Translations under genes and position numbers: made by a program
Shown here: in pieces, positions 32,927 to 61,060 of the stretch
How the letters are laid out: the number at the start of each line of letters is the position of its first letter
Position numbering within the stretch: position 1 is the first letter of the stretch
Notes under the pieces: generated by a model
The model's database searches: none
What the model was told of the DNA's origin: nothing
Seen by the model: only the letters and a program-made list of their open reading frames with translations
Sequence record: NZ_CP025192.1
DNA: 64,000 nucleotides
Source of the DNA: a plasmid
Strand: one strand, 5' to 3'

Positions 32927-32996
32927 TCGGACGGCATGCCGCCAGCTTCGCCTGACGAGTTCGTTCCAGCCAGAGCTGGCCAACGTGACAATGCCG
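32927..32996 (-). repeat. Inverted solo copy of the IS6 left end (about 70 bp: the inverted repeat plus the first 11 nt of tnp), marking a second, deleted IS6 copy.
   Basis: The sequence 32927-32996 is the reverse complement of 31806-31886 (about 62 of 62 identical up to ATGCCGTCCGA, then diverges). Confidence 0.6.
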
Positions 32997-32999
32997 CAA

Positions 33000-33507: not shown

Positions 33508-33627
33508 TGCCCGCCAGAATCGCAGGATTATCGCATGGTTCCAACTGATCCCTGCAATTCCGGAGCGCCCAAACCAACAATTCTCCCAAGCAAATCAGTG
33601 CCCGGGAGCTTGTTCAGACCCGACGAC

Positions 33628-44181: not shown

Positions 44182-44208
44182 GAGCCTCCCTGCCCCAGCG
44201 CGCGTCCT

Positions 44209-44237
44209 GTGTCCGGAAAAGAGAAGTTTCCGGACAC
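44209..44237. promoter_or_regulatory. Perfect 11-bp inverted repeat GTGTCCGGAAA-N7-TTTCCGGACAC about 30 nt upstream of the integrase-2 start; candidate operator or recombinase-binding site.
   Basis: Seen directly in the sequence. Confidence 0.35.
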
Positions 44238-44431
44238 AGCCACCGTAGCCGCAGGCTTGCTCCGAGGGCAAGCCTTCTGGCAGCCGCAATGCGGCAGGAG
44301 GTGAGCGGTGGTAAGGCCAGTTACCGCTCCTAACGCGGGCGCCGCTTGTTGCCGTCGCCAGCGACGCGCGTCCACACTCCTAGACAGCAACGAAGATGCT
44401 AATAGGCGTGTAGCCGGTAGAGGAGGCAAAG

Positions 44432-46198
44432 TTGTACAAACCGGGGGGCACCATCGCCGAGGCACTCAGCCGCATCCAGAACAAGACCTATGTTCTGCCG
44501 GCGATCCAGCGCGAATTCGTCTGGAAGCCAGAGCAGATCGAGCGGCTGTTCGACAGCCTGATGCAGGGCTATCCGTTCGGCACCTTCCTGTTTTGGAAGG
44601 TGGAGCCGAGCACCAGCGGCAAGTTCAAGTTTTACGACTTCGTGCTGAACTACCATCAGCGCGACGCCGCGCACTGCCCGGAGCTCGGCAAGATGCACCA
44701 CCAGAGCGTCACGGCAGTGCTCGACGGACAGCAGCGCCTCACTGCCCTCAACATCGGCCTACGCGGTTCGATGGCGATCAAGCAGCCGAACAAATGGTGG
44801 ACCAACCCGGACGCATTTCCAAAGCGAACGCTGCGCCTGGACCTGCTCGCACCGCAGACACCAGACGAGGACGGGGTGGTCTATCGGTTCCGCTTCCTCG
44901 ACGACGGCCAGGCTGCGCGAGATGAGAAAGCCCACTGGTTCAGTGTGCCCGAGATCCTAGGCATGGAGGACGGACCGGCCATGTTGTCCGCGCTTATGAC
45001 GCGCGGGCTGCAAGGTGACGCTCTAAGGGCCGCCTATTCGACCCTCGACCGCCTCCACCGAGTCGTCCACTCGCACAACCTGATCAACTACTATGAAGAG
45101 GAGACGCAGGACGTCGAGCGCGTACTGAACATCTTCATCCGCCTGAACTCCGGCGGAACGGTGCTTTCCTATTCCGACCTCCTGCTGAGCATCGCGGTCG
45201 CTCAATGGAAGCAGGTGGACGCACGCGCCGAGATCCATGCTCTGGTCGACGAGCTGAACCGGATCGGTACGGGCTTCTCATTGAGCCAGGATTTTGTGCT
45301 GAAGGCGGGGCTGATGCTGGCCGACATCGCCAGCGTCGGCTTCAAGGTCGAGAATTTCACCACCGCCAACATGGCCGCGCTCGAGGCGAACTGGCCCGCC
45401 ATCCGGGCGGCGCTCGTGCGGACGGTCGAGCTGGCGGCCAGCTTTGGCCTCAACGGTCAAACCCTCCGCGCCGACAGCGCCCTCCTGCCGATCGCCTATC
45501 ATCTCTATCGCCGGAACGTGCCTGCCAACTATGCCAGCCACAGCCAGTTCGCGGCAGATCGGGAGGCAATACGGGGTTGGTTGATCCGCTCGCTCCTGAA
45601 GGCGTCCGGCATCTGGGGCAGCGGCCTGGACACGCTGCTGACAGCCCTTCGCGAGGTCGTCCAGCAGCACGGGGCGGATGCCTTCCCGGTCATTCAGCTC
45701 AGGCAGGTGATGACGCAACGCGGCAAGTCGCTGACCTTCGAGCCGGCCGAAGTCGACGACCTTCTGCACATGGAATACGGCGACAAGCGGCTCTTTCCTC
45801 TGCTCGCCTTGCTGTTCCCGTTCGTCGACCTCAGGAACAACTTTCATGTCGATCACGTCTTCCCAATCTCTCGCTTCTCCCGCGCGAAGCTGCTGAAGGC
45901 GGGATTCAGCGGGGATCAGGCGGAGGACCTCGCCCGGCACGCGAACCAGCTGCCCAACCTGCAGCTGCTCGACGGCGCGATTAACAACGAGAAGCGCGCC
46001 GCCATGCCCGGCGAGTGGCTGGCCAAACAGTATCCTGATCCATCATCGGCGCAGCACTATCGAGAGAAGCATCTGCTTGGGAATGTGCCGGACGACCTCA
46101 CGGGCTTCGCGGCCTTCCACGCGGCGCGGCGGGACCGGTTGCGAACTGTGCTGACCGGGATGCTGGTAGGACCGGCGCAGGTGTCGGATCAGGGGTAG
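44432..46198 (+). CDS. DUF262 (ParB/Srx-like NTPase) plus DUF1524 (His-Me finger nuclease) fusion; a GmrSD/SspE-like defence nuclease (588 aa).
   Basis: N-terminal LPAIQREFVW (DUF262 DGQQR-type motif ...LDGQQRLTAL); C-terminal ...NFHVDHVFPIS... (DUF1524 HxxH/HNH-like); TTG start with GGAGG ribosome-binding site. Confidence 0.7.
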   Translation: MYKPGGTIAEALSRIQNKTYVLPAIQREFVWKPEQIERLFDSLMQGYPFGTFLFWKVEPSTSGKFKFYDFVLNYHQRDAAHCPELGKMHHQSVTAVLDGQQRLTALNIGLRGSMAIKQPNKWWTNPDAFPKRTLRLDLLAPQTPDEDGVVYRFRFLDDGQAARDEKAHWFSVPEILGMEDGPAMLSALMTRGLQGDALRAAYSTLDRLHRVVHSHNLINYYEEETQDVERVLNIFIRLNSGGTVLSYSDLLLSIAVAQWKQVDARAEIHALVDELNRIGTGFSLSQDFVLKAGLMLADIASVGFKVENFTTANMAALEANWPAIRAALVRTVELAASFGLNGQTLRADSALLPIAYHLYRRNVPANYASHSQFAADREAIRGWLIRSLLKASGIWGSGLDTLLTALREVVQQHGADAFPVIQLRQVMTQRGKSLTFEPAEVDDLLHMEYGDKRLFPLLALLFPFVDLRNNFHVDHVFPISRFSRAKLLKAGFSGDQAEDLARHANQLPNLQLLDGAINNEKRAAMPGEWLAKQYPDPSSAQHYREKHLLGNVPDDLTGFAAFHAARRDRLRTVLTGMLVGPAQVSDQG

Positions 46199-46379: not shown

Positions 46380-47102
46380 TCAATAAGGGTTCGCCAAGGC
46401 CACGACCCGATTGCCCGCACCGTCGCCTCGCACCTCCAAGGCCGGCGATGTCGACAGGAGGTAAGCGGCCGAGTCGCCCAGCGCGAACGGGAACATGACC
46501 GGGCTCGACGAGATGCCATCGACCGGGAGCGCGCGCCCCGCATACCGCAGGCACGCTTCGCTGAGCCACGCCGCGACCGGCGAGCCGTGCAGATCGATGG
46601 CAGGGGCGCGGGTGATCCGCTTCCCGTTGTCCAACTTCTCGATCGTCCCCCAGCTCGCCTGCGACTGGAGCACCATGTTCGTCATGCGGCGCGTACCCTC
46701 GCGCTCCCCGTAGGTCTCCGCCATCCGCCGGTGGACTTCCGCCGACCTGCAGTCGCCGTGCAGCGCCGTCAGCCGGCCAACGATCTCAGCCACCCTTCCG
46801 AAGAAGCTGTAGGTCGCCAGGGCCATACCCCAGGTCAGCGGGACGGCCGTCGTGGACGGCGCAGCGCGATAGATTCGCGCCCCGCGCGCGGTGAAGTCGA
46901 GGAGGTCCGGGCGCGGCTCGAGCCACAGCCTGTTCAGAACCGTCCGGGTCTTCTTCTTGGCCGCCGGGCCGGGATGCGCGGCGTCCAGCAACGCCGTCAG
47001 CTCGCCGAGGCTCGCCAGCCCGGCGCTCACGCGAAGAGCCGCCTCGGCCAGCTCGAGCGGGACGAAGCGGTCGAAGCCAATCTGTGCGGCGGCCGTGCTC
47101 AT
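46380..47102 (-). CDS. brxA: BrxA (DUF1819-like), the terminal gene of the type 3 BREX operon (240 aa).
   Basis: Position immediately after pglZ with ATGA overlap; size; all-alpha predicted composition. Assignment rests mainly on synteny. Confidence 0.45.
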   Translation of the reverse strand: MSTAAAQIGFDRFVPLELAEAALRVSAGLASLGELTALLDAAHPGPAAKKKTRTVLNRLWLEPRPDLLDFTARGARIYRAAPSTTAVPLTWGMALATYSFFGRVAEIVGRLTALHGDCRSAEVHRRMAETYGEREGTRRMTNMVLQSQASWGTIEKLDNGKRITRAPAIDLHGSPVAAWLSEACLRYAGRALPVDGISSSPVMFPFALGDSAAYLLSTSPALEVRGDGAGNRVVALANPY

Positions 47103-49093
47103 TGATCGGCGTCCGCAACCTGCACCCGCACGAACGGCACGATGAGCTCCTCGACCGATGGTCCGCCGTGAGCGACGATCCGCTCCCCCCGCGGCACGAA
47201 CGCCTTCCGAGTGCCCGCGTACACCGGCAACACTTCTGGAGGTAGCCCGGGCACGCCGAGACGGAAGGTGTCGAGCTCCGAAGGGACGGACGCCGCCAAC
47301 GCGTCGCTACGGTATGTCCGAACCCTCTCGCCCTTGACCTCGGACACCACGCCCTGGCTGAGCCGCCCGATTCCTTCGGCCTCCACGTTCCCGTGGTCGG
47401 CCGTCAGGTAGACCTGGTAGCCGTGCCCGGCGAGCAAGCGGACGAGGCCTTCGGCAAACCCGGTGTCGCACCAAGCGGCGATTTGGCCGCTGATGCCCCG
47501 CTTCCCGAGCATCGCCCCGTGCACCAGCTCGTCGACCATGTCGACGACGATCCCGGCCACCTTCATTCCCGGCTTAGATATCGCCACGGCCAAGTCGGCC
47601 AGTTGCTCCGTCCGCTTCAACCCCTTCGCGTAGCACACCTCCGAGCTGCGGAGGCCGTTCTCCTGCCAGAAGCGCGCCCAAAGCTGCGGCTCCTGGGCCG
47701 TGGTGTCGATGGAGGTGGGGAACTCGCGCGGGCGGAGGCCGGAGAAGAGGGCCTGCCGGGAAACGGAGGTCAGGGTCGGAAGCCACGCGAAGCACGCGCC
47801 ATCGTCCGCGGCGAAGCCGCGGACCCGCGCGGCCAGGTGGTCGCGGACCTGTAGCCACTGGTCCATGGCCAGGCCGTCGAACACCACGAGCGCAACGCGC
47901 ACCTCGCCGGCGGCGCGGCGCAGCGCGAGGTACCTCGGCACGTGGTGGACCATGACCGGCCCCCTCGCGGCCGGGAGGGACGGAAGGTCCGCGAAATGCG
48001 TCGTGACCCAGAGCCTCAGGCGATCGTCGGCGTCGCGCTGTAGTTGACTCACCTGCTGCTCCAGCGGTTTCGCGGCATCCACGTTCAGGGAGTGGAAGCG
48101 GAAGATCAGCTCCCCGAGGCGGCGCGCGAAGTCGGCCCAGTCGCGGTGGGACGACCCCGTCGAAGGTAGATTGGTGGCAAGCCGCCTGGCCCCCTGGCCC
48201 ACCAAGTCTGCCTGCGTGTGCGGGTCTTCGACCAACCCCACCCTCACCCATTCCGGCACGCCGGCGGGCGGCCTCCCGACGCCGACCGGACGAAGCCCGC
48301 CATCGAGGAACAACGTGCCGACGATCGCCCGGACGTCGGGGTGCTCGAACGGCACCGCGATGGCAATCGACTCCACGGCTTCCGCGTCCGGGCCGCTGCC
48401 AGCGTCGATGCCCTGCTGGAGCAGGAACCGGCGCCAGGCATCCTGCAGGACGCGCAACGTGAAGCTCATGGATGAGAGCAGATCGGCGACCGGGAGACCT
48501 CCGATCGCGGTGTCCTTCAACAGCTGCGCGACGTGGTCGGCCAGCACCCTCGGCAGGCTCGATCCGCGGTAGTGCAGGCGCAGCAGCTCCCGCCAGAAGT
48601 CCTCCGGGCCGCCCAGCATGTAGGGGCTGATCCGGAAGACGCGGGTGAGGATGAAGTCCTTGGTCGCCGCCTCGCCCAGCGGCTGCGGCGCATGCCGGTC
48701 TTGCGCCTGGAACATCGCCTCGTGATGCTCCGAGGCGATCTGCCTCACCACGCTGTAGCTCAGCCTCGGGAAGAGGTCTGCCAAGCTGAGGCTTACCGTG
48801 CGAGCCTGACGGATGTAGTCCCACGGCAGCACGTTCACGTCGGTTCCGCGCAGCTGCAACACCAGCGCTTTTTCCGGTCCCGCCTCCCCCCGGTCCCACG
48901 CGTCCCGGTAGCGTTCCTCGAACTCCACGCGGAAGACGACCGGGTCGTCGAAGGGCAGAACCTCGAAGCCTCTCTCCCGGAGGCTGTGCAGCACGGCCTC
49001 GTCCAGTAGCACGTCGTCAGGATCGCAGGCGATCCAGAATCGGGCCAGCTCGGTGGGGAACTCCCGAAGGATCCGGTCGGTCCACGCGCTCAC
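47099..49093 (-). CDS. pglZ: PglZ (BREX alkaline-phosphatase-superfamily protein), 664 aa.
   Basis: PglZ-like core ...VYLTADHGNVEAEG..., ...VVFDGLAMDQW...; ATGA overlap with the brxHII stop. Confidence 0.65.
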   Translation of the reverse strand: MSAWTDRILREFPTELARFWIACDPDDVLLDEAVLHSLRERGFEVLPFDDPVVFRVEFEERYRDAWDRGEAGPEKALVLQLRGTDVNVLPWDYIRQARTVSLSLADLFPRLSYSVVRQIASEHHEAMFQAQDRHAPQPLGEAATKDFILTRVFRISPYMLGGPEDFWRELLRLHYRGSSLPRVLADHVAQLLKDTAIGGLPVADLLSSMSFTLRVLQDAWRRFLLQQGIDAGSGPDAEAVESIAIAVPFEHPDVRAIVGTLFLDGGLRPVGVGRPPAGVPEWVRVGLVEDPHTQADLVGQGARRLATNLPSTGSSHRDWADFARRLGELIFRFHSLNVDAAKPLEQQVSQLQRDADDRLRLWVTTHFADLPSLPAARGPVMVHHVPRYLALRRAAGEVRVALVVFDGLAMDQWLQVRDHLAARVRGFAADDGACFAWLPTLTSVSRQALFSGLRPREFPTSIDTTAQEPQLWARFWQENGLRSSEVCYAKGLKRTEQLADLAVAISKPGMKVAGIVVDMVDELVHGAMLGKRGISGQIAAWCDTGFAEGLVRLLAGHGYQVYLTADHGNVEAEGIGRLSQGVVSEVKGERVRTYRSDALAASVPSELDTFRLGVPGLPPEVLPVYAGTRKAFVPRGERIVAHGGPSVEELIVPFVRVQVADADQ

Positions 49094-51903
49094 GACGCGC
49101 CGCCCGCCGGGCCGCCAACGCGCAGCATGAGAACGGAGTGGAGGTCGGGCACGCGGATCTCGGCGGCGTCGAGCCGCGCCATGCGGGTCTCGTGCTCCGC
49201 GCGCAGGCGCCTGCGGCGATACTCGCGCACGCTCGGGAGCCCGATGCGGCCGATGGCCTGATACCTGACTTCGTAGGCGTGGCGGGCGCGGTCGCGCTCC
49301 TCCCGGATGCGGGCTGCGTGCTCTTCCGCCAGCTCGGCGAAGACCTGCTCACCGTTGGAGACGGCCGCACGCTTGGCGTCGTGGAACCACCGGCCCGGGA
49401 CCTTCTCCGAGGAAAGCCCGACCAGCCGGATGCGCTCCGTGACGAGGAGATCCCAGATCCGCCTCGCGGTCGGCATGAACATGCGCCCCTCGTCGCTCAC
49501 GAAGACCGCCAGGAAGCGCCGCCTGCCGAAGTCCTCGGCCGACAGACCGATCTGCCAAAGGGACCACACGCCCCTGACGGTATCGGGCAGCCCGCCGACC
49601 TCGACCACCGGGAGCGGCTGACCGTCCACGCAGCGGGGCAGCTCGGTGATGACGGCCCGGGCCCGCGCGTCCTCGAGCGTGACCCACTCCACGTCCGGCC
49701 GGCTCGCCGCGGTACGCGCGTCGAAGCACGCACCGACAGATTCGCTGCCGTCGATCCAGCGGAGACGCCACGTATCGCCGTCCTTGATCGCAGCGCCCCC
49801 CTTCCCCGGCAGGCCGGTCGTGATCGCCCGCTCGAGCCAGAACTGCGCGGGGTGGTCCTGCCACTTGCGTGCGCCTTCCGCGTCGAGCTCCTGGTCGCCG
49901 GCGAGGAGGTCGACGTTCCTGCGGCTCTCTGCGACTGCCGACCGGAGCTGCGACGCCACCGCATCGCACTCGGCTTCGATCGCGTCCGGGTTCTGGAGGC
50001 CCTGCACGAACAGCTCGTCGAACAGCCCGTCCGCCTCAACCGAGTCCATCACGTCCGCCGCCTTGTCGACGCCAAACTCCTCCGCGATGACGGCGAGCTT
50101 CGCCTCGAGAACCTCGCGGACCCGGTGCTCGACGGTGTCCTCAAGGACCAGGTTGATCGCGCGCACCACATGCGGCTGGCCGATGCGATCGACGCGACCG
50201 ATGCGCTGCTCGACCCGCATGGGGTTCCACGGCATGTCGAAGTTGACGATCACGTGGCAGAACTGGAGGTTGAGCCCCTCGCCACCGGCGTCGGTGGAGA
50301 CGAGAATCCTGACGTCGCGGGCGAACGCCTGCTGCGCCCGCGTGCGGGTCTCAAGGTCCATGCCGCCGTTGAGCGTTGCGACCGAGAAGCCACGCGCCTC
50401 TAGGAGCGCGGCGAGCATGGCCTGCGTCGGCACGAACTCCGTGAAGACGAGGACCTTCAGCTGCGGGTCCCCTTCCTCCTGCTGGAGTTTGTAGATGAGA
50501 TCCAGCAGCGCCTCGGCTTTCGCGTCGGTCCCCTGGGCCTCAGTAGAGCGGGCGAGCTCGAGAAGCACCTTGACCTCCGCCTTCTCCGTCTGCCAGCCCC
50601 TCGCCTCGACGGCCAAGTCGATCTGCGCCTGGCCGTCCAGATCCGCCCACTCGTCGACGTCGGCGGTCTCGAAAAGGGACGGCTGGAGCTGCGGCTGGTC
50701 CAGCATTGCCAGGCGGTTCTCAAGCGTCGCGCGGATAGCCGCGGTGCTCGACGTCACCAGCCTCTGCATGAGTATCATGAGGAACCCGATGTGCCGCTGC
50801 TTCGCGGCCAGCGCCTGGTTGTAGCCGTGGCGGACGTAGTCGGTGATCGCCTCGTAGAGACTCCTCTGGGCCGCGTGGCGGTCCTGCCATGCTACGGGAT
50901 GCAGCCTCGTCATCCGCGGCTTGAAGAGGGCCCTGCCTTCCGCGTCGATCGCGGCGCGCTTCTCCGTCCGGATCACGAACGGCCGGACGCGGTCGCTCGT
51001 CACGCTACTCTCGTCGGGGAAGGAATCGCGGTCGAGCAGCTGCATGAGCCGGTGGAACTGGTCGGTCTTGCCCTGGTGGGGCGTCGCCGACAGGAGGAGC
51101 AGGTAGGGTGCGGCCTCGGCCAGCGCCGCCCCGAGCTTGTACCGCGCGACCTGGTCCGTGCTGCCGCCCATGCGGTGCGCTTCGTCGATGATGACCAGGT
51201 CCCACGACGCCGAGACCAGGTCCTCGAAGCGCTCCCGGTTGTACGTGCTGAGCTGCTCGAGGGTCCAGCCGCGGCGCCCGTCCAGGGGCTTTACGGAATC
51301 GAGCGAGCAGATCACCTGGTCGTGGAGTCGCCAGAGGTTCTCCTCGTCGCTGCGCCACTGGCGGAAAGCGGAGAGCTCGGCCGGTTCGACGAATTGGAAG
51401 CTCTCGCCGAAGTGCAGCCGCATCTCCGCCTGCCACTGGCGCACGAGCCCCTTGGGCGCGACGACGAGGATCCGCTTCGCCATGCCGCGGAGCTTCAGCT
51501 CGCGTAGGATCAGCCCGGCCTCGATCGTCTTCCCGAGGCCCACCTCGTCCGCCAGGAGGTAGCGGATCCGGTGGCGCGCCATCGCGCGGTTCAGCGCGTA
51601 GAGCTGGTGCGGCAGCGGCACCACGCTGGACTGGACCGGCGCGAGCAGGAGGTCGTCCTCCAGCGCGTCGAGCAACCTCGCCGCCGCTGCGGTATGCAGG
51701 ACGTGTTCGACCGTGGGCTGGACGGAGCCGAGCTGCGCGAGATCCTTCTCGCGGGCGCGTACGACAGCGTCACGGCTAGGCAGCCAAACCCGATAGGCGA
51801 CCTCGCCCCAGATCTCTTCCCGGTCGATCACCCGGCAGGGTGCGGCATGTCGTCCGTGCCAACACCAATCGCCTACCGAGTGCCTGCCGCCGAGCTTGTT
51901 CAC
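49090..51903 (-). CDS. brxHII: BrxHII, SF2 (SNF2/DEAH-like) helicase of type 3 BREX (937 aa from GTG).
   Basis: Motif I LADEVGLGKT, motif II DLVIIDEAHRMGG, helicase C-terminal motifs; GTG start overlapping the pglXI stop (GTGA). Confidence 0.7.
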   Translation of the reverse strand: MNKLGGRHSVGDWCWHGRHAAPCRVIDREEIWGEVAYRVWLPSRDAVVRAREKDLAQLGSVQPTVEHVLHTAAAARLLDALEDDLLLAPVQSSVVPLPHQLYALNRAMARHRIRYLLADEVGLGKTIEAGLILRELKLRGMAKRILVVAPKGLVRQWQAEMRLHFGESFQFVEPAELSAFRQWRSDEENLWRLHDQVICSLDSVKPLDGRRGWTLEQLSTYNRERFEDLVSASWDLVIIDEAHRMGGSTDQVARYKLGAALAEAAPYLLLLSATPHQGKTDQFHRLMQLLDRDSFPDESSVTSDRVRPFVIRTEKRAAIDAEGRALFKPRMTRLHPVAWQDRHAAQRSLYEAITDYVRHGYNQALAAKQRHIGFLMILMQRLVTSSTAAIRATLENRLAMLDQPQLQPSLFETADVDEWADLDGQAQIDLAVEARGWQTEKAEVKVLLELARSTEAQGTDAKAEALLDLIYKLQQEEGDPQLKVLVFTEFVPTQAMLAALLEARGFSVATLNGGMDLETRTRAQQAFARDVRILVSTDAGGEGLNLQFCHVIVNFDMPWNPMRVEQRIGRVDRIGQPHVVRAINLVLEDTVEHRVREVLEAKLAVIAEEFGVDKAADVMDSVEADGLFDELFVQGLQNPDAIEAECDAVASQLRSAVAESRRNVDLLAGDQELDAEGARKWQDHPAQFWLERAITTGLPGKGGAAIKDGDTWRLRWIDGSESVGACFDARTAASRPDVEWVTLEDARARAVITELPRCVDGQPLPVVEVGGLPDTVRGVWSLWQIGLSAEDFGRRRFLAVFVSDEGRMFMPTARRIWDLLVTERIRLVGLSSEKVPGRWFHDAKRAAVSNGEQVFAELAEEHAARIREERDRARHAYEVRYQAIGRIGLPSVREYRRRRLRAEHETRMARLDAAEIRVPDLHSVLMLRVGGPAGGAS

Positions 51904-54677
51904 CCGCCCCCCTCGGTCCGGGTGAGCGCCTGATCGTACCAGAGGAGGAGCTTCTCGTCCTCCTGCAGCGCCTCCTCGGGAATCTTCTGGGCGACGTCGA
52001 TGATGATTTTGTAGTTCTTGGCCGACCAAGCCACCTTGAAGCCCGCGCGGAGCACTTCAAGACGGAACTCCTTCAGCCGTCGTCCGGGAGCTACTCGATA
52101 CCCCTCGAACTCTTTTAGCAAAGCCCTCTCACGCTTCTGCTCCAGATCTTGCGCCTTACCAGGATCCGGCACGAACCAGCGGTCCTTCGCTTTTGCTTTC
52201 AACACTGGATCAGATTTCTCGCGATTCCGCATTTCATGATAGTTTGTTGAAAGATAGTTATGGATTTGGCTGGGCACATCGCTAGATCCATCGTAGCGCA
52301 AGAAATTGTCCTCAAGAAGATCGGAAAGTTCGGGGCGTGTTTCGTGCTTTTTCCAGCCTGCCCCGAGCTGAGTGATGAACTCCGGGTGCAATTCCTGGTA
52401 GGTCGATGGCCGCTTCCGGAGAAAATCGGTCAACCAATCGATGGCGCTACGTTCGTCTGCAACGAACATTTCCATTTGCGGTGCCTTAGGCACTTGAGCG
52501 CGCTTCTTATCATACTCAATGACCTGATCAGGCAAGAATACCATGCCGTCTCGCTCTGGAAAGCGGCTCCGAAGACCTTCCTGAAACTCTTGGCTGGAAA
52601 GAGGCACAGGCACATTGTGCCGGATAAACCACGCCACCATACGGTCAAACAGGATGCGGGGATCGCGCTCCGCGATGAACTCGAGCGCGGCAGCCTTCTG
52701 TTTTGTCACTGGCAACTGACGAAGATGGGTCTGGACAAAATCCCAGGCTGACTCCATTGCAGGCTGGTTTTCAAACCGCTGTTCCAATCCGCCATTCGGT
52801 TTATATGCCGATATTATGAGATCCTGCTTTACTGCGACGGTAGTGGTAACGGACTTGAAACTTCCCTGCTTCTTGTCGAGAGTTGACACATCGGCAACCA
52901 CGAACCCAGCTTCTTGTAAAGCGGTTTGCAGGCTGTTCCAAACAGACGCTTGTGTATTCGAAAATACAACAGTCATCCACCGACCTGGTTTGAGGACACG
53001 GTAATATTCAGCGAAGCAAGAGGCCATTATTCGACGATAATCATCAAGAGATTTTTGTGATGCACGATTTTCTTTGGACCGGTCTACAATCGCATCAAGC
53101 CGTGCGTCCGTCATAACGCCATGCCATGCCTCAACAAGAAAATTGAGTTCTGCGTACGGTAGATTTTCTCCGAACGGAGGGTCGGTGAATACATAGTCGA
53201 TCGAGGAGTCTTCTAGGGGGAGTTTGGCTGCTGTGCCTGTGGTTGTGATAGCATTCTGTGATCTAAGCCTGAAGGCGTCGAAAGCCTTCTCAAGACGGCT
53301 CAGCTTACCTTCAAGAATATACCACGGACTGCATTCTGCATGCTGCGCTCCAACATAATAAACGCCAGCCAGATATTGGTTGACTTGCGAAAAGTGAGTT
53401 GGCGCATATCGCGCGAGGATGGACATACCCCAAATCGCTTGCTCTACGAAGTACATCAACATCGATCGAATGCGGCCATCTTTGTAATTACACGCGCTCC
53501 GCCACAAAGCTCCCATGCCGTGCGCTGCACGAGACAGAAACATGTCTTGAACAGACGTAACGCCTTTGTCACGCATTCGTGGAGCTTCCCACATATCGGC
53601 ATATGGGAAGCCGGTGGTGGGGACCTCTTCTGGAATAGGAAGGTCGTTGATTTTCTTGATGAGAGCTAGGTCAGCAGCATCTGGCTTCTTCTCATACCGG
53701 GTGCCGCCCACTTTATACGAGATTAACGAAGGCGCGCGCTTGGGGACGCTTATCGTCTTGCCGGACAGAGCATCAATCTTCGTCTCATAGCGACGATCCA
53801 GCTTCTTTTTCGTAAGTGTTGCGCCGCAGTGGGGGCATGGAAATTCGTCCCGCACTCGCTTAGTCGAATCATCGAGTGCTTCGTCGATGAAATTCACTTC
53901 GTCGGCGCAGTCGGGACACGTGAAGAGTTCGCTCCAAACCGTGAACTCAATTCGCCCCTTCGTTTTCCGATCTACATGCAATGTTTCATACATCCAGCCA
54001 ATCTCGCGCTCGACTTCAGCGAGCAACCGCTTCCCGGCGGCGGCAAAGGCGCCGACATCAAATGGTAGATTATAGTTCGCGGCGATGAAGGTCGCCGCCG
54101 GCGACAGGTCGTTCAAAACGACCTTGCGTGCGCCCCATCGGGGCGCTGGTTGGCCAGCCTTCTTCCACTCCATCTCGAGCTGCTGGCGGTAGGTGGCGGG
54201 CGCCGTGCCGCACCATTGTGCCGCCACGCCTGTCATGCCTGACCCAGCAAAGCCGTCGAGCACGACGTCACCCGGTTCGGTGAAGTGCAGGATAGACGGC
54301 ACGATGGCCAAGTGCGGCACTTTGGTGTGATAGGAGTGCGCCTTATAGATCGGGTCCGTCTTACCGACCGAGACATCAATCGCCATCGGCTCGCGCGCAT
54401 ACTCCTTGGCCGGGTCGTAGGGCTTGCCGCAGTGCTTCACGAAATCGGCTAGCCAAGGGTTAGGGCAGGCCGTGTAGTAGGGCGGATCCGACATGGCCAG
54501 GATCGCCTCGTCGGTCCCCTTCGGGAACCCCTCCTGTGTGCGGAAGGCGGGGTCCTTCAGCTTCTCGGCCAGCAGCTTCCGGAAATGCTCGCGGCGCGCG
54601 TCCTCGTTCGGAAAGGTCAGCCCCAGGCATGTCACCGCACCTGCCGCGCCAGGGCGAGGGATCAGAGTCTCATTCAT
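51900..54677 (-). CDS. pglXI: PglXI, the BREX type 3 N6-adenine DNA methyltransferase (925 aa).
   Basis: DPPY motif (ILAMSDPPYYTACPNPW) and a second DPPF motif (DYVFTDPPFGENLPY); SAM-binding-like region VLDGFAGSGMTG; Cys4 cluster CPDC...CPHC; lower GC than its neighbours. Confidence 0.7.
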   Translation of the reverse strand: MNETLIPRPGAAGAVTCLGLTFPNEDARREHFRKLLAEKLKDPAFRTQEGFPKGTDEAILAMSDPPYYTACPNPWLADFVKHCGKPYDPAKEYAREPMAIDVSVGKTDPIYKAHSYHTKVPHLAIVPSILHFTEPGDVVLDGFAGSGMTGVAAQWCGTAPATYRQQLEMEWKKAGQPAPRWGARKVVLNDLSPAATFIAANYNLPFDVGAFAAAGKRLLAEVEREIGWMYETLHVDRKTKGRIEFTVWSELFTCPDCADEVNFIDEALDDSTKRVRDEFPCPHCGATLTKKKLDRRYETKIDALSGKTISVPKRAPSLISYKVGGTRYEKKPDAADLALIKKINDLPIPEEVPTTGFPYADMWEAPRMRDKGVTSVQDMFLSRAAHGMGALWRSACNYKDGRIRSMLMYFVEQAIWGMSILARYAPTHFSQVNQYLAGVYYVGAQHAECSPWYILEGKLSRLEKAFDAFRLRSQNAITTTGTAAKLPLEDSSIDYVFTDPPFGENLPYAELNFLVEAWHGVMTDARLDAIVDRSKENRASQKSLDDYRRIMASCFAEYYRVLKPGRWMTVVFSNTQASVWNSLQTALQEAGFVVADVSTLDKKQGSFKSVTTTVAVKQDLIISAYKPNGGLEQRFENQPAMESAWDFVQTHLRQLPVTKQKAAALEFIAERDPRILFDRMVAWFIRHNVPVPLSSQEFQEGLRSRFPERDGMVFLPDQVIEYDKKRAQVPKAPQMEMFVADERSAIDWLTDFLRKRPSTYQELHPEFITQLGAGWKKHETRPELSDLLEDNFLRYDGSSDVPSQIHNYLSTNYHEMRNREKSDPVLKAKAKDRWFVPDPGKAQDLEQKRERALLKEFEGYRVAPGRRLKEFRLEVLRAGFKVAWSAKNYKIIIDVAQKIPEEALQEDEKLLLWYDQALTRTEGGG

Positions 54678-56544
54678 TGTCGGCCTCGTTCGTGGGGCGC
54701 GCCGCGGGCTGACGGCCTGCGCGCAGCGCTCGGAGCTTGATGCCGGCCTCCGTCAGCACATACTGCTGGTTTGGCGACCGAGGTTTGTCCGGTACGGTCA
54801 TTCGCAGTACGCGCGCCTGCAGAAGCGGCTCGAGGTACTGTGCCATGAAGTGCGGACGCTGCTTGTAGCCCGCCCGCGCCATGAGATCTGCGAGGCTGCG
54901 CGGCACGTCCGCGTGCTCGACGACGCGCCACTGGCCTTCAGTCAACCGATCAAGCGACCGAACAAGCTCGGGCTGGCTGTCGGCAGCTTGTTCGGTGGCT
55001 TGTTCGGTCGTGGATGACGCCGTTGTCTGGTCCCCGCCCCCTTGGCCCTGTGGCGCCGCACCGGCCAGCGACGGCCCGTAACGCGAGCGGAGATGGGCGG
55101 GCAGCGTGTACTGAGCCCCCCCGGTTTCTAGCGGTGCCACCAGAACCTGGGCAACCAGGCGCTCGATAACCGCCTTCGCCGCAGCACTGGTCAGGCCCGT
55201 GAGCGCCTTGACGTCGGTGAGGTCGATGTGGCCGCGGCGGGTAAGGTACGCGAAGACCGCCGCCTCGTGCTCCGACAGGCTGGCCCCGAGGCTCGCCTGA
55301 GCCAGGAGCTGCTCCTCGGTGATCAGCTTCTCCTTCCGCATCGTCAGCCGGAAGGTCTTGTCCGCCTTGTCGTTGTCGATCTCCGGCGGGAGATAGCCGA
55401 GGCTCCGCCAGCCGTTGAAGATCGCGCCGACCCCGGTGCCGCCCTGGTCGGACAGACCGATACGCCGGAAGGCGTTCACGACGCTTGGGTTGCGGACCTC
55501 CTTGTCGCCGGGGTCCAGCAGCCTTTCCCTCGGGGAGAACGCATCGCCCGGATTGAAGAACTCGGTCTGGTTATGGAAGAACCTGATCACCGGGAGCCGT
55601 GTGTGGTCAGAGAAGTCCTGGTGGATGAGCAGGTTGATGGCCGCCTCGCGGAAGGACACGTAATCGGCGGGGTCATCGTCGCGTCTAAAGGTCGCCGCGT
55701 CGACCGAGAACGGGCGCTCGCTGTGCTTGAAGTAGAAGCCGACGATGCTCTGCCAGGTCTGGATCAGGTTCTCTTCGCAGGTCACGCGGTCCGCCCAGCG
55801 GACGCTCGGGGAGTAGTCATCCGCGCCGCTCCGATACAGCTGCAGGTCTACCGCCATGCGGGGTAGGATTTGACGGAAGTAGCCGTCCGCGCCCAGCGTG
55901 AGGATCGCTGCCCGAGTCGGGAGCAGGACGCCGCCGTGCTCGACGACGAAGCTCCACCTGCGCAGGAAGGCGTCATCGTCGTCGCCCTCGTTCCTCCCTG
56001 GGTTGCTGGCGTTGAAGCGTGCCCGGTACCACCGCAGCGATGCTGCGTCGAAGCACTGTTTGATGTCCAAATCCAACGGCTCAGCATCGAAGCGCTCGGT
56101 GGCCCCATCCCGATAGAAGCGGAGCAACTCGTCGGCGGTGCACGTGTCATCGCGACCACCCCGACGGATGAATGCCTTGCGCAGATCCCGGTCGATGTAG
56201 ACCGGCTTAGCGCGACGTTCGGCCTCGGGGATCCAGAAGGCCAGCACCGTGCCTTCGGGCAGATTGTGCAGGTGAGCGCGGACAGGCAGCCGTACGCTAA
56301 TCTTGTTCAGATCGCGCAATTGGCCGAGGAAGTCGTTCTGAACATTGTCCGCCTCGACGACGCCGGTGACCGAGAAGGAGCCGCGCGTCTCCTTGACCCC
56401 GAACACGAGGTACCCACCCGACGTATTGGCGAACGCGCTCACCGTGGAGAAGGCATTGCGCGGCACCATCGTGGCGGCCTCCTTGAACTCCACGTCGTTC
56501 CATTCGATGGACTGGAGCTTCGCCAGCAACTCGTCGCGGGTCAT
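54670..56544 (-). CDS. AlbA_2/Schlafen-like (divergent AAA-4) N-terminal domain plus HATPase_c_4-like domain plus C-terminal wHTH protein (COG2865-type), embedded in the BREX operon (624 aa).
   Basis: ...IEWNDVEFKEAATMVPRNAFSTVSAFANTSGGYLVFGV... is the AlbA_2 signature; ATG 56544 lies 2 nt after the brxC stop; 8-nt overlap with the pglXI start. Confidence 0.6.
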   Translation of the reverse strand: MTRDELLAKLQSIEWNDVEFKEAATMVPRNAFSTVSAFANTSGGYLVFGVKETRGSFSVTGVVEADNVQNDFLGQLRDLNKISVRLPVRAHLHNLPEGTVLAFWIPEAERRAKPVYIDRDLRKAFIRRGGRDDTCTADELLRFYRDGATERFDAEPLDLDIKQCFDAASLRWYRARFNASNPGRNEGDDDDAFLRRWSFVVEHGGVLLPTRAAILTLGADGYFRQILPRMAVDLQLYRSGADDYSPSVRWADRVTCEENLIQTWQSIVGFYFKHSERPFSVDAATFRRDDDPADYVSFREAAINLLIHQDFSDHTRLPVIRFFHNQTEFFNPGDAFSPRERLLDPGDKEVRNPSVVNAFRRIGLSDQGGTGVGAIFNGWRSLGYLPPEIDNDKADKTFRLTMRKEKLITEEQLLAQASLGASLSEHEAAVFAYLTRRGHIDLTDVKALTGLTSAAAKAVIERLVAQVLVAPLETGGAQYTLPAHLRSRYGPSLAGAAPQGQGGGDQTTASSTTEQATEQAADSQPELVRSLDRLTEGQWRVVEHADVPRSLADLMARAGYKQRPHFMAQYLEPLLQARVLRMTVPDKPRSPNQQYVLTEAGIKLRALRAGRQPAARPTNEADNE

Positions 56545-56546
56545 GG

Positions 56547-59500
56547 CTACTCCACCACGAACCGCAGTTTGGTGGTGTCCCTGCCCTTGCACCGGTCGCT
56601 CAGGAACGTCTCGAAACGCTTGCGCAGGTCCTCGGGCGTGGCCGGCGAACCGCCCTGGAGCAGCGCCTGCTTGATCTCGCCGCCGGTGACTGGGATCTTC
56701 TCGAGGCCTGACAGCGCCTCCTGCACCGCCGCGACGAAGTCCGAGCCCACCGGATCGGGAAGCGCCTTCGACGCGACGAACCCGTCGACCAGCTTCCGGG
56801 TCGCGGGCTTGAGCAGGTCGAAGTTCGCCTGGATTATCGGGTCTTCCAGGTTGTCCAGCAGCGTCTGCTGCCACCCATCGAGCAGCCGGTCGAGCTCGCC
56901 GTCCAGCTGCTTCAGCATGGTCGCTGCCGGCAGCATGTCGCCCTGTTCGCTCGTCGGCCGGAAGTGGCAGTGTGGGCAAACAGGACTGGCTGCGAGGTCC
57001 GCATCCATCAAAGAGTCGCAGCTCTTTAGCTTGCCGAGCTTGTCCTCGAAGCTGTCGAGCTGGCTGGTGGGCATCAAGGAAATGTTGCGGAGCACTCGCA
57101 TTGCGATCAGCCGACCGTCCTTGCGCAGAGCTTCCTTACTCTTGTTCTCCGCCACGCCGAGGCGCGCTCTGCTATGCTGCCCGACGTAGGCAGCAACGTA
57201 GTCTTTCTTCAGGCGTGCCAGGATTTGCCGGTACTCGCCTGCGTGCTGCGCAGTTCGATCGGTTGCGAGCCGCTCAAACACCTGCTTGCGCGCCGCTTGC
57301 GCCTGCTGCACCCAGGGATCATCGCCCGTCAGCACCATCTCGGCCTGCGAGAGGTAGCCGGCCGCGGTGCCCAATTCCGCGACGAGTTCCAGCATGCGTT
57401 CGACGGCGTCCAGCGCCTCCAGGTGCTTCTTTTGCGCCGCCACGTCGTCCGAGCCGACGCGCAGGTTCTTGAGCTTGCCCACCGTGTTGTACGGAGACAG
57501 ACTCTCCGCGAAGGCCTTCAGCGCATCCAGCTTCGCCCGCCAGTCGGCGAGCTCGTTCTCGCGCAGGAGCGGCTGCCCCCAGAAGCTCAGCCGTCCCGCC
57601 ATATCGGTCGTCGCGGCGAGCACGCGCCGCGTCAGCTTCGTGACCTCCTCCTGCAGCCGCTTGACCGGCTCGTCGGACCCCTGCGCGGCCTGCTGCGCGA
57701 GACCGGGCTGGAGGCCGAGCATCTCGAATAGCGCGCGAAGGACGGCGACGTTGATCTCCCGCGGGGCCTCGACGTGCTTAAACTGCCGGAGCTCGTCGAG
57801 CGGCCGCTCGGCGAGCAGCGCGATCTTGCCAGGATCGATCTTGTCGCCGGCGACCGCCAGCACGATGTCGCCCGAGTAGACGAGTGCGCCCAGCACCGCG
57901 ACGAGCAGATCGGGCTCTAGCCGGAACTTGAGCGGCGCGAAGTACTCGACGTCGGCGCCGCCGCTCAGCAGCTCGCCGCGGTTCAGCACCTGCCCGTGGC
58001 CCTTCGCCTTGAGACGCGAGAGGACCTCCTGCGCGTAGCGGGACCGCTCCGGGTCGAGGCGATCGCCGTCCAGCATCTCGAGGCCGTCCAGGATGACCAC
58101 CGCGTCCTTGGTGCGGGGCCCGCCGGCGAGGGCGCGCAGCGCGTTCCCAACGAGCTGCTTTCGGTTCGCCTCGGTCAGCAGCGCAGTGAACGTCGGGTAC
58201 TCGGGCGCCACCTCAGCGAACCGGTTGCCCAGCGCCACGCCGGCGATCACGTTCACCACGTCGCGGAAGTTGATGCGCTCGTCGGGCCGCAGCCGCGCCT
58301 TGTCGCGCAGCGAGATCCCCTTCGTCCACTCCTGTAGGGTCCGGGCCTTGCCCTGGTAGGTGACCTCGTAGGCCGCCATTTGCTTTTCCTGCAGCCACTT
58401 GCCCATCTCGCGCAGGGCGTCGTTCGCCTTGTCGAGGTAGACGCTTTTGGCGGCGCCGCTGGCGGTCGACGCGAGGTCCTGCGCAGCGGCGTAGCAGGAC
58501 AGGTGCCGCCTGATCGCGTCGTCGGGGCCCTTGAGCCGGAAGAACACCTCGTCGGCCTTGTGCTCGTCGCGAAAGCGCGGCGGCTCGAACGGCTGGATGA
58601 AGTAGATGTAGAAGTCGCGCTCGGGCTGCGCCGTCGGCCGGTCGTTCGGCGCGCCGAAGAAGAGGTAGCCGATGCGCTCGACGCGGCGCTCCTGCCACTC
58701 GATCTGGTACTGCCAGATCTGGTGGCCGGCGACGTAGGTGGTCTCGTCCGTGCGCTCCATGAGCTGGCGGACCGCGCTGAAGTAGGCGCGGTCGAGCGCG
58801 TCGTCCGAGAGCGCCTCGGCCCGCTTCTCGATCTGGGCGTCGTAGTCGACGTCCTTCTTTAAATCCAGGAAGTACTGGTCGGTGTCGGGCGCCCTGGAGA
58901 TGAACTGGCCGTTGACGGTCTTCAGCGTCTCGCGGAGGACGGTCTGCACCAGGGAAAGCAGGTCGGCGTCGGGCTCGCCGCCCATCGCGTCGATGCCCGG
59001 TTGGAACAGGCAGAGCGTGTCCCGCAGTTCGGTGGCGGTTGGCCCCACGGGCACGTAGATGTCCCCGCCCGTCGTCAGCCGGTGCACCGAGAGGCCGTTG
59101 ATGATCCGGAGCGCCATTGGCCGGTAGGCGGGACGGGTGAACGCCTTCCTTACCCGTTCGGACAGAACCTCGGAAACTTTCAGCACCGGCCCGATGCTCG
59201 GGTCGGCGCGGAGGACGGAGTTGGCCGTGATCGTGTCCCAGAACCTGTCGTAGCCGATCAGCCCCGGGCGGTCGCCCGGTACCTCGTCGTCCAGGATGTC
59301 CTGGATCTGGTCGCGGAGGGTGACCAGCGCGCCGCGCTTCTCGGCGAAGACCAGGCGCTCGAACGTCCCGATGTAGTCGGGGTGCACCGGGAACAGCCGC
59401 ACGTAGTCGTCCATGCGCTCGTTCATGGACCCGTAAAACTTGGAGAACGGCGCCAGGTACGCCCGGATCCGCTCCTGCTGGTCGGCGGTCTTCTTCAGCA

Positions 59501-60278
59501 GACGCTCCGCCACGACGAAGCTGACGTCCTGCCGGGCGAGCAGGATCTGCGTGAACCGGTCCTTCACGCGGCGCAGGCTGTCGGCCACGTGCTGGAAGCG
59601 GCTGCTGTCGAAGACCGCCTCCTGGACGCCGGCGACGAAGCGGAACCTCAGGTGCTTCGTGACCTCGCCGATCTCCCGCAGGAAGGACAGGTCGAGGACG
59701 AGGTCGTGGTCCCTCCGGGACCGCAGGTACTCGAGGAACTCGTCGACGACGAGGAGTACGCCCTGGTTTGGGTGGCGCTCGGCGAAGGCCGCCATCATCT
59801 CCTCGAAGGCGGCCTTGTTGTTGATGACCTTGTTGGCCGGCGGGAAGACGTAGCTTACCCCGTTCTTCTCTAAGAAGATCTCGAGCTGCTGCGTGACGAT
59901 GTCCCGCAGGGACATCTGGCTCGAGATCTCGATGCGGTGCACCTTGAACTTCCCGGCGATCGCCGCGGCCGCCTCGGCGACCTTAGGATGGCGGATCATC
60001 GGGACGTACGCGGCGTCTTCGGCCACCAGCGAGAGTACCGACATGAGGTGCGACTTGCCGGTGCCGTAGTTCCCGACGACGAGCACCCCCTTGTGGTCCA
60101 CCGCCTCGTCGAACGAGAGCTGCGGGACGATGAGCTTCGCGATCCGCTCAGCCATGTCGTCCGAGATCACGTAGGTCGACACCAGCTTCCGCGCCTCGTC
60201 CGGGCGGTTGGCGTCCAGAAGTTGGATGACGGACTCGATCGGCTCGAACTGGATCAGGTCGCCATAGCGCATCGGCAT
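56547..60278 (-). CDS. brxC: BrxC/PglY, the large P-loop ATPase of BREX (1243 aa).
   Basis: Walker A VVGNYGTGKSHLMS, Walker B LLVVDEF; about 1200 aa with long helical C-terminus; start MPMRYGDLIQFEPIESV with AGGAAAG ribosome-binding site 14 nt after the brxF stop. Confidence 0.65.
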   Translation of the reverse strand: MPMRYGDLIQFEPIESVIQLLDANRPDEARKLVSTYVISDDMAERIAKLIVPQLSFDEAVDHKGVLVVGNYGTGKSHLMSVLSLVAEDAAYVPMIRHPKVAEAAAAIAGKFKVHRIEISSQMSLRDIVTQQLEIFLEKNGVSYVFPPANKVINNKAAFEEMMAAFAERHPNQGVLLVVDEFLEYLRSRRDHDLVLDLSFLREIGEVTKHLRFRFVAGVQEAVFDSSRFQHVADSLRRVKDRFTQILLARQDVSFVVAERLLKKTADQQERIRAYLAPFSKFYGSMNERMDDYVRLFPVHPDYIGTFERLVFAEKRGALVTLRDQIQDILDDEVPGDRPGLIGYDRFWDTITANSVLRADPSIGPVLKVSEVLSERVRKAFTRPAYRPMALRIINGLSVHRLTTGGDIYVPVGPTATELRDTLCLFQPGIDAMGGEPDADLLSLVQTVLRETLKTVNGQFISRAPDTDQYFLDLKKDVDYDAQIEKRAEALSDDALDRAYFSAVRQLMERTDETTYVAGHQIWQYQIEWQERRVERIGYLFFGAPNDRPTAQPERDFYIYFIQPFEPPRFRDEHKADEVFFRLKGPDDAIRRHLSCYAAAQDLASTASGAAKSVYLDKANDALREMGKWLQEKQMAAYEVTYQGKARTLQEWTKGISLRDKARLRPDERINFRDVVNVIAGVALGNRFAEVAPEYPTFTALLTEANRKQLVGNALRALAGGPRTKDAVVILDGLEMLDGDRLDPERSRYAQEVLSRLKAKGHGQVLNRGELLSGGADVEYFAPLKFRLEPDLLVAVLGALVYSGDIVLAVAGDKIDPGKIALLAERPLDELRQFKHVEAPREINVAVLRALFEMLGLQPGLAQQAAQGSDEPVKRLQEEVTKLTRRVLAATTDMAGRLSFWGQPLLRENELADWRAKLDALKAFAESLSPYNTVGKLKNLRVGSDDVAAQKKHLEALDAVERMLELVAELGTAAGYLSQAEMVLTGDDPWVQQAQAARKQVFERLATDRTAQHAGEYRQILARLKKDYVAAYVGQHSRARLGVAENKSKEALRKDGRLIAMRVLRNISLMPTSQLDSFEDKLGKLKSCDSLMDADLAASPVCPHCHFRPTSEQGDMLPAATMLKQLDGELDRLLDGWQQTLLDNLEDPIIQANFDLLKPATRKLVDGFVASKALPDPVGSDFVAAVQEALSGLEKIPVTGGEIKQALLQGGSPATPEDLRKRFETFLSDRCKGRDTTKLRFVVE

Positions 60279-60291
60279 CCGGTCTTTCCTG

Positions 60292-60831
60292 CTAACCAAC
60301 ATTGAACGGCACCCACCCTTCCGTGCCGTAGTTCTGGTGCTCCGGGTGGCCCGGCACCGCGTAGACCAGACGCCCGTCCCGCAGCTCTCCCGGCCAAGCG
60401 GCGACGACGCGGCGCCCGTGGGAGTGCCGCCTCATCAGGTCCAGGGGACTGAGCCGTAGGGTCCAGTCGAAGAGGAGCTCTATGTTGTCCCAGAGCAGCA
60501 GGTCACGGCCGACCGTCCCGTCGGCCAGTTCCTTCAGCAGGTCGGGAGCCATGAGGTGCCGTTGGGACGCGGGCAGCGGGACGAGGAGGCGGCCGAGAGC
60601 CTCGCCCAGCCGCATGACGGGGGCATTCCGGCGCGTGGAAAGCTGCCCCAGCAGCTTGCTCTTGCCGGATCCCGGAGGACCGACGAGGAGCACGAGCTTG
60701 CTATTCAAGCCCGCGACGTCTTCGACGAGGCGCTCAAGGATGTCGATCACGGTACGCGCCTTGAACAGAGCCGAAGGTTCCGACCTCGAGCCGCATCGAG
60801 CGCCGACGCGAGGCTCTCTGGCGGAGGGCAC
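60292..60831 (-). CDS. brxF: BrxF-like small P-loop ATPase, first structural gene of type 3 BREX (179 aa).
   Basis: Walker A LVGPPGSGKSKL; size; position directly upstream of brxC. Confidence 0.45.
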   Translation of the reverse strand: MPSAREPRVGARCGSRSEPSALFKARTVIDILERLVEDVAGLNSKLVLLVGPPGSGKSKLLGQLSTRRNAPVMRLGEALGRLLVPLPASQRHLMAPDLLKELADGTVGRDLLLWDNIELLFDWTLRLSPLDLMRRHSHGRRVVAAWPGELRDGRLVYAVPGHPEHQNYGTEGWVPFNVG

Positions 60832-60859
60832 GGAGCGGCTCGATCAGGGGTGCTCATCG

Positions 60860-61060
60860 TCAGGATTTGGACTGGGCAGGCACAGGGCGGACGGGGGATG
60901 AGCGACCCGCCTCGATCGCCTTGAGGCGGTCGAACTCCTCGAAGGCCATCACCACGACGACCGGTCGTCCGTGCTTGGCGACGATCAGCGGCTCGATCCG
61001 GGCGAGGTCGATCAGCCGACCGAACCCGTACTTCGCCTCCTTGGCGGTCAGCGTCTTCAT
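60860..61060 (-). CDS. Phd/YefM-like antitoxin-fold protein (66 aa) with no adjacent toxin, 28 nt upstream of brxF.
   Basis: MKTLTAKEAKYGFGRLIDLARIEPLIVAKHGRPVVVVMAFEEFDRL is the Phd/YefM signature; ATG 61060. Confidence 0.5.
   Translation of the reverse strand: MKTLTAKEAKYGFGRLIDLARIEPLIVAKHGRPVVVVMAFEEFDRLKAIEAGRSSPVRPVPAQSKS

Follow-up and report, generated by a model that had tools for sequence, protein, structure and literature searches.

An optional, exchangeable Schlafen-family gene nested in a complete type 3 BREX operon of plasmid NZ_CP025192.1

The 64,000-nt stretch of plasmid sequence NZ_CP025192.1 analyzed here (the window, to which all coordinates refer) carries a complete type 3 BREX (bacteriophage exclusion) operon of seven co-oriented open reading frames (ORFs) on the minus strand at 46380-60831, one of which is an additional Schlafen-family gene inserted between brxC and pglXI. 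The inserted gene is intact, is present in about one-third of related operons and behaves as an optional cassette. By analogy with characterized Schlafen proteins, its product is read here, with only slightly better than even confidence, as a dispensable, BREX-dedicated backup effector of the tRNase type. To our knowledge, there has been little work on type 3 BREX. Since two papers of 2026 (PMC12839542; PMC13462974) already list the association of such genes with BREX, the locus is a clean, intact example of it and no discovery.

The gene order brxF-brxC-[624-aa gene]-pglXI-brxHII-pglZ-brxA was recovered with three independent libraries of hidden Markov models (HMMs), PADLOC, Pfam and NCBIfam, in agreement with the type 3 order given in an initial annotation of this DNA. 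The ATPase gene upstream of the insertion, brxC (56547..60302), is of the DUF6079 type, with a full-length match of 1896 bits to PF19557 and 1753 bits to PADLOC BrxC PDLC02482; its start is probably at M9 (60278), matching the annotation of sister loci. The downstream gene, pglXI (51900..54677), encodes a predicted N6-adenine methyltransferase (PADLOC PDLC02541, 1331 bits; PF01555) of the N6_N4_Mtase type, distinct from the PglX of types 1 and 2. The longest ORF of brxF, a BREX-3 P-loop/inactive STAND protein, occupies 60292..60831 (NF033453, 162.5 bits at a cut-off of 50; PADLOC BrxF, E = 2e-36), whereby the start probably lies near 60750; in sister loci, BrxF is annotated with a length of 152-163 aa. 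The remaining genes are brxHII (49090..51903), an SNF2-family helicase gene matching PADLOC PDLC02500 (BrxHI/BrxHII) with 1401 bits and the Pfam domains SNF2-rel_dom and Helicase_C; pglZ of the BREX-3 type (47099..49093; NF033449, 666 bits at a cut-off of 250; PF08665); and brxA of the BREX-3 type (46380..47102; PADLOC PDLC02444, E = 2.4e-55). All are encoded on the minus strand, and neighbouring genes abut or overlap: the GTG start of brxHII overlaps the pglXI stop (GTGA), while pglZ and brxA each overlap the preceding gene by 4 nt. The G+C content of the window is about 70%, and it contains many spurious ORFs; chance matches are excluded for the operon genes because their E-values range from 0 to 1e-55. 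With BrxF, a DUF6079 BrxC, PglXI, BrxHII, PglZ and BrxA all present, the type 3 BREX operon is complete.

The inserted gene (54670..56544, minus strand) encodes a 624-aa protein composed of a Schlatpase supradomain (Schlafen nuclease plus GHKL ATPase) and a helix-turn-helix (HTH) part. The domain content predicted initially was confirmed by matches to three Pfam families, each exceeding the gathering score: the SLFN_AlbA_2 nuclease domain (PF04326) at residues ~14-135 with 57.1 bits vs. 25.3, the GHKL ATPase-like domain HATPase_c_4 (PF13749) at residues ~296-401 with 36.4 bits vs. 26, and the winged HTH (wHTH) family Fic-like_C with 54.2 bits vs. 27. There are two C-terminal wHTH regions, at residues ~425-470 and 550-598. 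The codons at 56482..56505 (minus strand) specify EWNDVEFK, whose residues E14-x4-E19-x-K21 fit the Schlafen motif defined as Ex4(E/D)xK (10.1101/2025.07.24.666596); E14 and K21 do not vary among 29 BREX-embedded homologues, and both main clades retain E19. Invariant in the same homologues are the GHKL N-box E300-x3-N304-x3-H308-x-D310 (REAAINLLIHQD; codons 55615..55647, minus strand) and, likewise, P332, G333, R351, N352 and G371. Judging from the motif, E300 and N304 would be equivalent to E314 and N318 of the Schlafen-Argonaute RzAgo, the pair that binds ATP-Mg in that protein (10.64898/2026.05.29.728809). None of the PADLOC and NCBIfam models matches the inserted gene, and DefenseFinder/PADLOC-style tools would therefore call a plain BREX-3 operon at this place. 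A profile built from both clades matched PDB 2kyy (AlbA_2) and 3lmm and, weakly over the motif region, the mammalian SLFN8, SLFN5 and SLFN14; the PDB searches returned only structural-genomics entries (2kyy, 3lmm, 4rgl) plus the weak Schlafen matches.

The protein is 100% identical to one of Roseomonas mucosa, and the identical protein was seen on 8 contigs. The 120 best orthologues align with it end to end (coverage 97-100%, 615-631 aa, 64-100% identity) and come from Alpha-, Beta- and Gammaproteobacteria, Desulfuromonadales and Verrucomicrobiota; to the remaining 119 listed full-length orthologues, its identity is 64-90%. In comparison with the sister operons L086 and L087 (loci of the survey described below are cited by such numbers), the ratio of nonsynonymous to synonymous divergence (dN/dS) of the inserted gene is 0.14-0.15, and that of brxC, brxHII and pglZ is 0.10-0.19. 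The gene is thus under purifying selection as strong as that on the core genes. A pseudogene, which had been put forward as a possible objection, is ruled out by the full-length ORF, the identical protein on 8 contigs and the dN/dS of ~0.15.

Direct reading of the junctions bore out both the 2-nt gap after brxC and the 8-nt overlap with pglXI that had been claimed. The first junction reads ...GTGGTGGAG TAG CC ATG ACC..., with the brxC stop TAG and the spacer CC at 56545..56549 (minus strand), a GGAG 6 nt before the ATG and a GAG codon ahead of the stop (GAG-TAG-CC-ATG), and is of the termination-reinitiation type. At the second, the stop of the Schlafen gene and the start of pglXI share the overlap ATGAATGA (54670..54677, minus strand) in the context ...GAC A ATGAATGA G..., with GAGG upstream; the identical 8-nt overlap is found in L086, L087, L088 and L089. 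A similarly tight arrangement recurs elsewhere: the spacer between brxC and the Schlafen gene measures 1-4 nt in 23 of 28 measurable metagenome junctions and, as estimated from tblastn coordinates, 2-4 nt at most such junctions of the genome loci. Being co-oriented and tightly joined to both brxC and pglXI, the inserted gene is therefore made from the BREX transcript.

The distribution of the gene was followed in a BrxC-anchored sample, for which one genome per species was scanned by BrxC alignment and the 80 best loci were kept (BrxC 69-86% identical to that of the window across 80 species). Operon genes were mapped by tblastn, inserts were clustered and their representatives scanned, which left 77 informative loci. 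A Schlafen-family gene was found in 25 of them, about one-third: in nine, a clade A gene, that is, of the clade of the window protein, follows brxC; in five, a clade B gene follows brxC; in nine, a clade B gene follows pglXI; and two hold short variants. The comparison with further BREX-3 loci that the initial annotation had proposed therefore gave a divided answer, the gene being missing from the other 52, where the remaining operon genes are intact. In many loci, the gap between brxC and pglXI is only 35-104 nt; elsewhere the brxC/pglXI junction, the pglXI/brxHII junction or both hold inserts, and the Schlafen-GHKL-wHTH family is their commonest occupant. When presence and absence were placed on a neighbour-joining BrxC tree, 20 Fitch parsimony changes were required, whereas shuffled labels needed 25 on average and never fewer than 19. 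BREX-3 operons thus gain, lose or swap the Schlafen gene with almost no regard to their backbone. Its presence in 25 of 77 loci, its occurrence at three alternative junctions (brxC/pglXI, pglXI/brxHII and brxHII/pglZ), its patchiness on the BrxC tree and the use of the same junctions by autonomous systems make it an optional, exchangeable cassette.

These same observations did not bear out the earlier argument that a gene co-translated with its neighbours is no passenger: the gene is present in only 25 of 77 loci, uses three junctions, needs at least 20 changes on the tree and shares its junctions with autonomous systems. As an autonomous passenger, the gene would be a self-contained, single-gene Schlafen defence sitting in a recombination hot spot and borrowing the BREX promoter with no interplay between the two. 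The junctions do hold autonomous PD-T7-3, HEC-01, PDC-M61, OLD-like and SIR2+HerA systems, and other prokaryotic Schlafen (pSlfn) proteins act alone (10.1101/2025.07.24.666596). Moreover, clade A proteins are 59-67% identical to the window protein irrespective of how similar the accompanying BrxC is (72-85%): in L010, the values are 65% for the Schlafen protein and 85% for BrxC, and in L070, 65% and 72%. One clade member, in L146, stands beside a Gabija-like pair of OLD and UvrD genes, and the 6 kb flanking it on each side contain no BREX.

The reverse sampling, however, goes against free passage. Among 80 loci collected in a Schlafen-anchored scan of metagenome contigs, 74 place the gene inside BREX-3 (41 between pglXI and brxHII, 32 between brxC and pglXI, one between brxHII and pglZ). 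The remaining six comprise two with BREX-1-like neighbours (L140, L143), the Gabija-like neighbour of L146, and three that were uninformative. Such a concentration is far above ordinary defence-island co-localization. In the metagenome loci, the gene is always oriented with the operon, and usually it begins 1-4 nt after the brxC stop. An independent, uncoupled passenger is accordingly held to be unlikely, though it deserves to be kept in mind. All eight individually inspected clade A contexts were BREX-3 with the gene after brxC, one of them on a Roseicitreum plasmid. The single instance of the gene between brxHII and pglZ is L124 (metagenome contig Ga0116169_1017750). In L140 and L143, the gene lies directly upstream of a BREX-1-like brxA-brxB-brxC cluster and is 68-69% identical to the clade B query from L046; since these two loci place it before a type 1-like cluster, the Schlafen family is not strictly BREX-3-specific. 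Because the family is nearly confined to BREX operons, always co-oriented with them and usually only a few bases behind the brxC stop, a functional association with BREX is likely.

A further alternative makes the gene product an integral part, as subunit or effector, of a BREX-3 subtype: it would bind the BrxC/PglXI complex and supply the restriction activity in the loci that carry the gene. The conserved termination-reinitiation-type junction with brxC and the 8-nt overlap with pglXI would suit such a subunit, and so would a dN/dS no different from the core genes, the near restriction of the family to BREX, and the inheritance of the gene with the operon backbone in L086 and L087. Nevertheless, it is missing from 52 of 77 close BREX-3 loci whose other genes are intact, it comes in two clades at three junctions, and the BrxC tree shows it gained and lost in an almost random pattern. 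PARIS, nested in type 1 BREX, is a precedent, as methylation does not need it (PMC11341690). An integral role is thus considered distinctly improbable. As for a core BREX-3 subunit in the strict sense, neither near-universal presence nor a fixed position nor co-phylogeny with the core genes was found; this candidate was rejected, the gene being optional, variable in position, patchy on the BrxC tree and inserted at sites common to autonomous cassettes.

A purely regulatory role is the least probable of the alternatives weighed here. In this view, the protein would bind the BREX promoter through its wHTH domains and use the others as sensors, in keeping with the old COG2865 label "predicted transcriptional regulator", which we take to apply to this family. 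Two C-terminal wHTH regions, including Fic-like_C, are indeed present, and the GHKL-like module could serve as a ligand-controlled switch. But the Ex4ExK nuclease motif, unnecessary for a repressor, is invariant; the gene lies mid-operon, neither upstream nor divergent; and when the operon was scanned for promoters and terminators, no signal exceeded chance and no promoter-like site appeared near the inserted gene. Besides, candidate regulators exist upstream of these operons. BrxR (WYL) genes precede the operon in L001 and L090, and in the window a 66-aa Phd/YefM-like ORF (60860..61060, minus strand; PF02604, 46.9 bits at a cut-off of 29.8) may be the operon regulator in their place. This ORF immediately precedes brxF and has no toxin gene beside it, and an orthologue occupies the equivalent place in the sister loci L086 and L087. 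Its start explains the upper limit of the region first delimited as 46380-61060, in which the operon itself was placed correctly and position 61060 belongs to this upstream ORF. A BrxR-type (WYL) identity of the inserted gene was rejected on the lack of WYL or BrxR domains in the Pfam search and on its mid-operon position. Hence, the original idea of a BREX variant with an additional effector, sensor or regulatory subunit is reasonable with respect to an effector, whereas the core subunit (25 of 77 loci) and the BrxR-like regulator (no WYL/BrxR domains) fall away.

The reading of the gene as a backup effector would work as follows. A complete BREX-3 operon would have acquired an optional Schlatpase-HTH cassette at its brxC/pglXI junction. 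By analogy with the characterized relatives RzAgo, RorSlfn5 and Cash, oligomerization, driven as in RzAgo by ATP binding to the PF13749 GHKL domain, would assemble the Schlafen active sites; the assembled enzyme might then cleave tRNA and stop translation, so that infection aborts or growth is arrested. The trigger or the restraint might come from the wHTH domains together with stoichiometric co-expression with BrxC. The protein would thereby serve as a second-line effector in cells whose BREX is overwhelmed or inhibited, a role like that proposed for PARIS inside type 1 BREX, and neither BREX methylation nor basic restriction by BREX would require it.

Several points weigh against this reading. 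The AlphaFold2 model of the inserted protein is poor (mean predicted local distance difference test score 53.2, predicted TM-score 0.38); its input consisted of 55 orthologues, all at least 64% identical. Out of seven pSlfn genes assayed, only the DUF262 and Ig-like fusions protected (10.1101/2025.07.24.666596), which leaves the activity of the HisKinase-HTH architecture unproven. The near-exclusive BREX context and the 1-4-nt coupling to brxC would also fit a physically integrated subunit, and the confinement to BREX could also reflect spread by recombination between homologous flanks. A bolder variant would couple the Schlatpase-HTH protein physically to BrxC, at a fixed stoichiometry set by the conserved 1-4-nt termination-reinitiation junction, as the executioner of a BREX-3 subtype, in which recognition of unmethylated DNA by BrxC/PglXI licenses the ATP-driven assembly of the tRNase; it is regarded as a long shot, and if true, it would mean that these BREX-3 systems act by translation arrest and not by blocking phage DNA replication.

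Among the core genes, pglXI has a history of its own. Its segment at ~52050-54100 has a G+C content of ~0.50 compared to ~0.68 in the flanks, and in a three-way DNA alignment this segment (PglXI residues ~190-875) shares only 55-66% nucleotide identity with L086 and L087, as against 85-98% elsewhere. The synonymous divergence (dS) from the same two loci is ~2.0-2.25 for pglXI and 0.07-0.6 for the other operon genes. From these sequence features, the segment is interpreted as a recombinational replacement, from a lower-GC donor, of the methyltransferase core and the target-recognition region, probably a specificity switch. The sister loci differ from the window mainly by this allele swap, the Schlafen gene having been inherited together with the backbone.

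The surroundings of the operon contain further defence and mobility genes. Convergent with brxA lies a GmrSD-family (HEC-05) type IV restriction-like gene outside the operon (44432..46198, plus strand; PADLOC HEC-05, 739 bits; GmrSD_N and GmrSD_C). In this it resembles the BrxU gene beside the type 1 BREX of pEFER. A tyrosine integrase (43180-44289) and an ISL3 transposase (41418-42971) follow on this side, and a ParA/VirC1-like gene (61360-62022) lies on the other. The region at 28000-35000 has a lower G+C content (0.62-0.64) and holds a FIST-domain gene as well as IS6/IS240-type and DDE_Tnp_1 transposases. With an integrase, three insertion sequence transposases and the ParA/VirC1-like gene, the BREX island stands in a mobile context, possibly that of a plasmid or an integrative and conjugative element.

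In the other BREX-3 loci of the genome sample, the brxC/pglXI and pglXI/brxHII junctions (L006-L085) are hot spots of nested defence cassettes. Apart from the Schlafen family, their occupants are PD-T7-3 (11 loci), HEC-01A/B (AAA_21 + DUF4276), PDC-M61A/B, an OLD-like ATPase with TOPRIM, SIR2+HerA, HATPase_c_3 and SfsA, together with unannotated families of ~444 aa, ~639 aa and 140 aa, as well as a pair made up of a 344-aa AAA_21 protein and an unannotated 170-aa protein. The conserved HATPase_c_3 gene, encoding a MORC-like GHKL protein of 629 aa, was found at L001:8037-9926, L005:11853-13742, L033:13817-15703 and L070:14813-16699, and also in L121, L125 and L128. It was seen only in BREX-3 loci that carry the Schlafen gene, either directly adjoining it or across pglXI; the two may form a two-gene module, the sample being small and biased. 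A 146-aa ORF behind the OLD-like cassette of L037 (15701-16141) has 36% identity to residues 518-612 of the window protein, which is the wHTH part only, and may be the remnant of a displaced cassette. A 104-aa ORF after brxC in L083 was rejected as a Schlafen remnant, as it matches only the low-complexity linker. In L051, L062 and L067, no brxHII match was found, and AAA_21-type (HEC-01-like) genes stand between pglXI and pglZ, which agrees with the published presence of BrxHII in only 77% of BREX-3 taxa.

A Schlafen tRNase made from the BREX-3 transcript would join a methylation-based system to a layer of abortive translation arrest, in parallel with PARIS, which is linked to type 1 BREX and to restriction-modification systems. 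Experiments can be guided by its optionality, the three junctions, the two clades, the near BREX-exclusivity and the 1-4-nt spacer. By sequence, the closest solved relatives of the protein are PDB 3LMM (583 aa; GHKL/HTH region) and 2KYY (AlbA_2, "RecG-related"), although both come from structural genomics, have no function assigned and share little identity with it. Of 5930 prokaryotic Schlafens, 19.2% have the Slfn-HisKinase-HTH architecture (10.1101/2025.07.24.666596). In the same study, E15/D20 were essential for pSlfn tRNases, and RorSlfn5, like Cash (PMC13462974), is a tRNase activated by phage or by a signal. RorSlfn5, DUF262-Slfn and Cash share with the window protein the Ex4(E/D)xK motif and the defence-island context; they differ in their sensors (Ig-like, DUF262, Csx15) and in working as single genes or together with type III CRISPR.

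The mechanistically closest case is RzAgo, the Schlafen-Argonaute in which alone the SLFN+GHKL "Schlatpase" module has been characterized: ATP-driven tetramerization through its PF13749 GHKL domain builds the Schlafen cleft, leading to tRNA cleavage and abortive infection (10.64898/2026.05.29.728809). Both proteins combine SLFN_AlbA_2 (PF04326) with PF13749 GHKL and conserve the E...N ATP/Mg box. However, the window protein has no Argonaute core or guide-dependent sensing and instead carries two wHTH domains within a BREX-3 operon. With respect to gene organization, a precedent is PARIS (ariA/ariB), which is embedded in the type 1 BREX island of Salmonella D23580 and was proposed to complement BREX against anti-restriction proteins (PMC11341690). 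Both are second defence modules nested inside a BREX gene cluster, whereas the proteins are unrelated (an OLD-type ATPase and a TOPRIM nuclease in PARIS) and the BREX types differ; moreover, unlike PARIS, the Schlafen gene is tied to its neighbours by the 2-nt spacer after brxC and the 8-nt overlap with pglXI.

Finally, two recent surveys already describe this kind of protein, and the locus is an instance of the association they report. One (Nucleic Acids Research, January 2026; PMC12839542) reports a Schlafen RNase with a minimal histidine kinase and wHTH closely linked to core loci of BREX and BREX-related systems in at least 1017 taxa and calls such proteins backup suicidal effectors; the other (Nature Communications, July 2026; PMC13462974) describes a Schlafen-ATPase-DNA-binding "Cluster 2" tightly associated with BREX. 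The statement in the initial annotation that COG2865-type proteins are not described as BREX subunits is thereby outdated. The first of these surveys counts 919 taxa with BREX-3 loci. The terms "Roseomonas", "Teichococcus" and "Schlafen" do not occur in those of its supplementary files that were examined, and the inclusion of this locus in its tables was not confirmed. In domain architecture and in placement within or beside the BREX core, the published proteins match that of the window, with no substantive difference. Both papers offer a census and a backup-effector interpretation without experiments; to these, the present analysis adds the frequency of about one-third among BREX-3 loci, the three junctions, the two clades, the 1-4-nt coupling to brxC, the patchy phylogeny and the near-exclusive occurrence with BREX.

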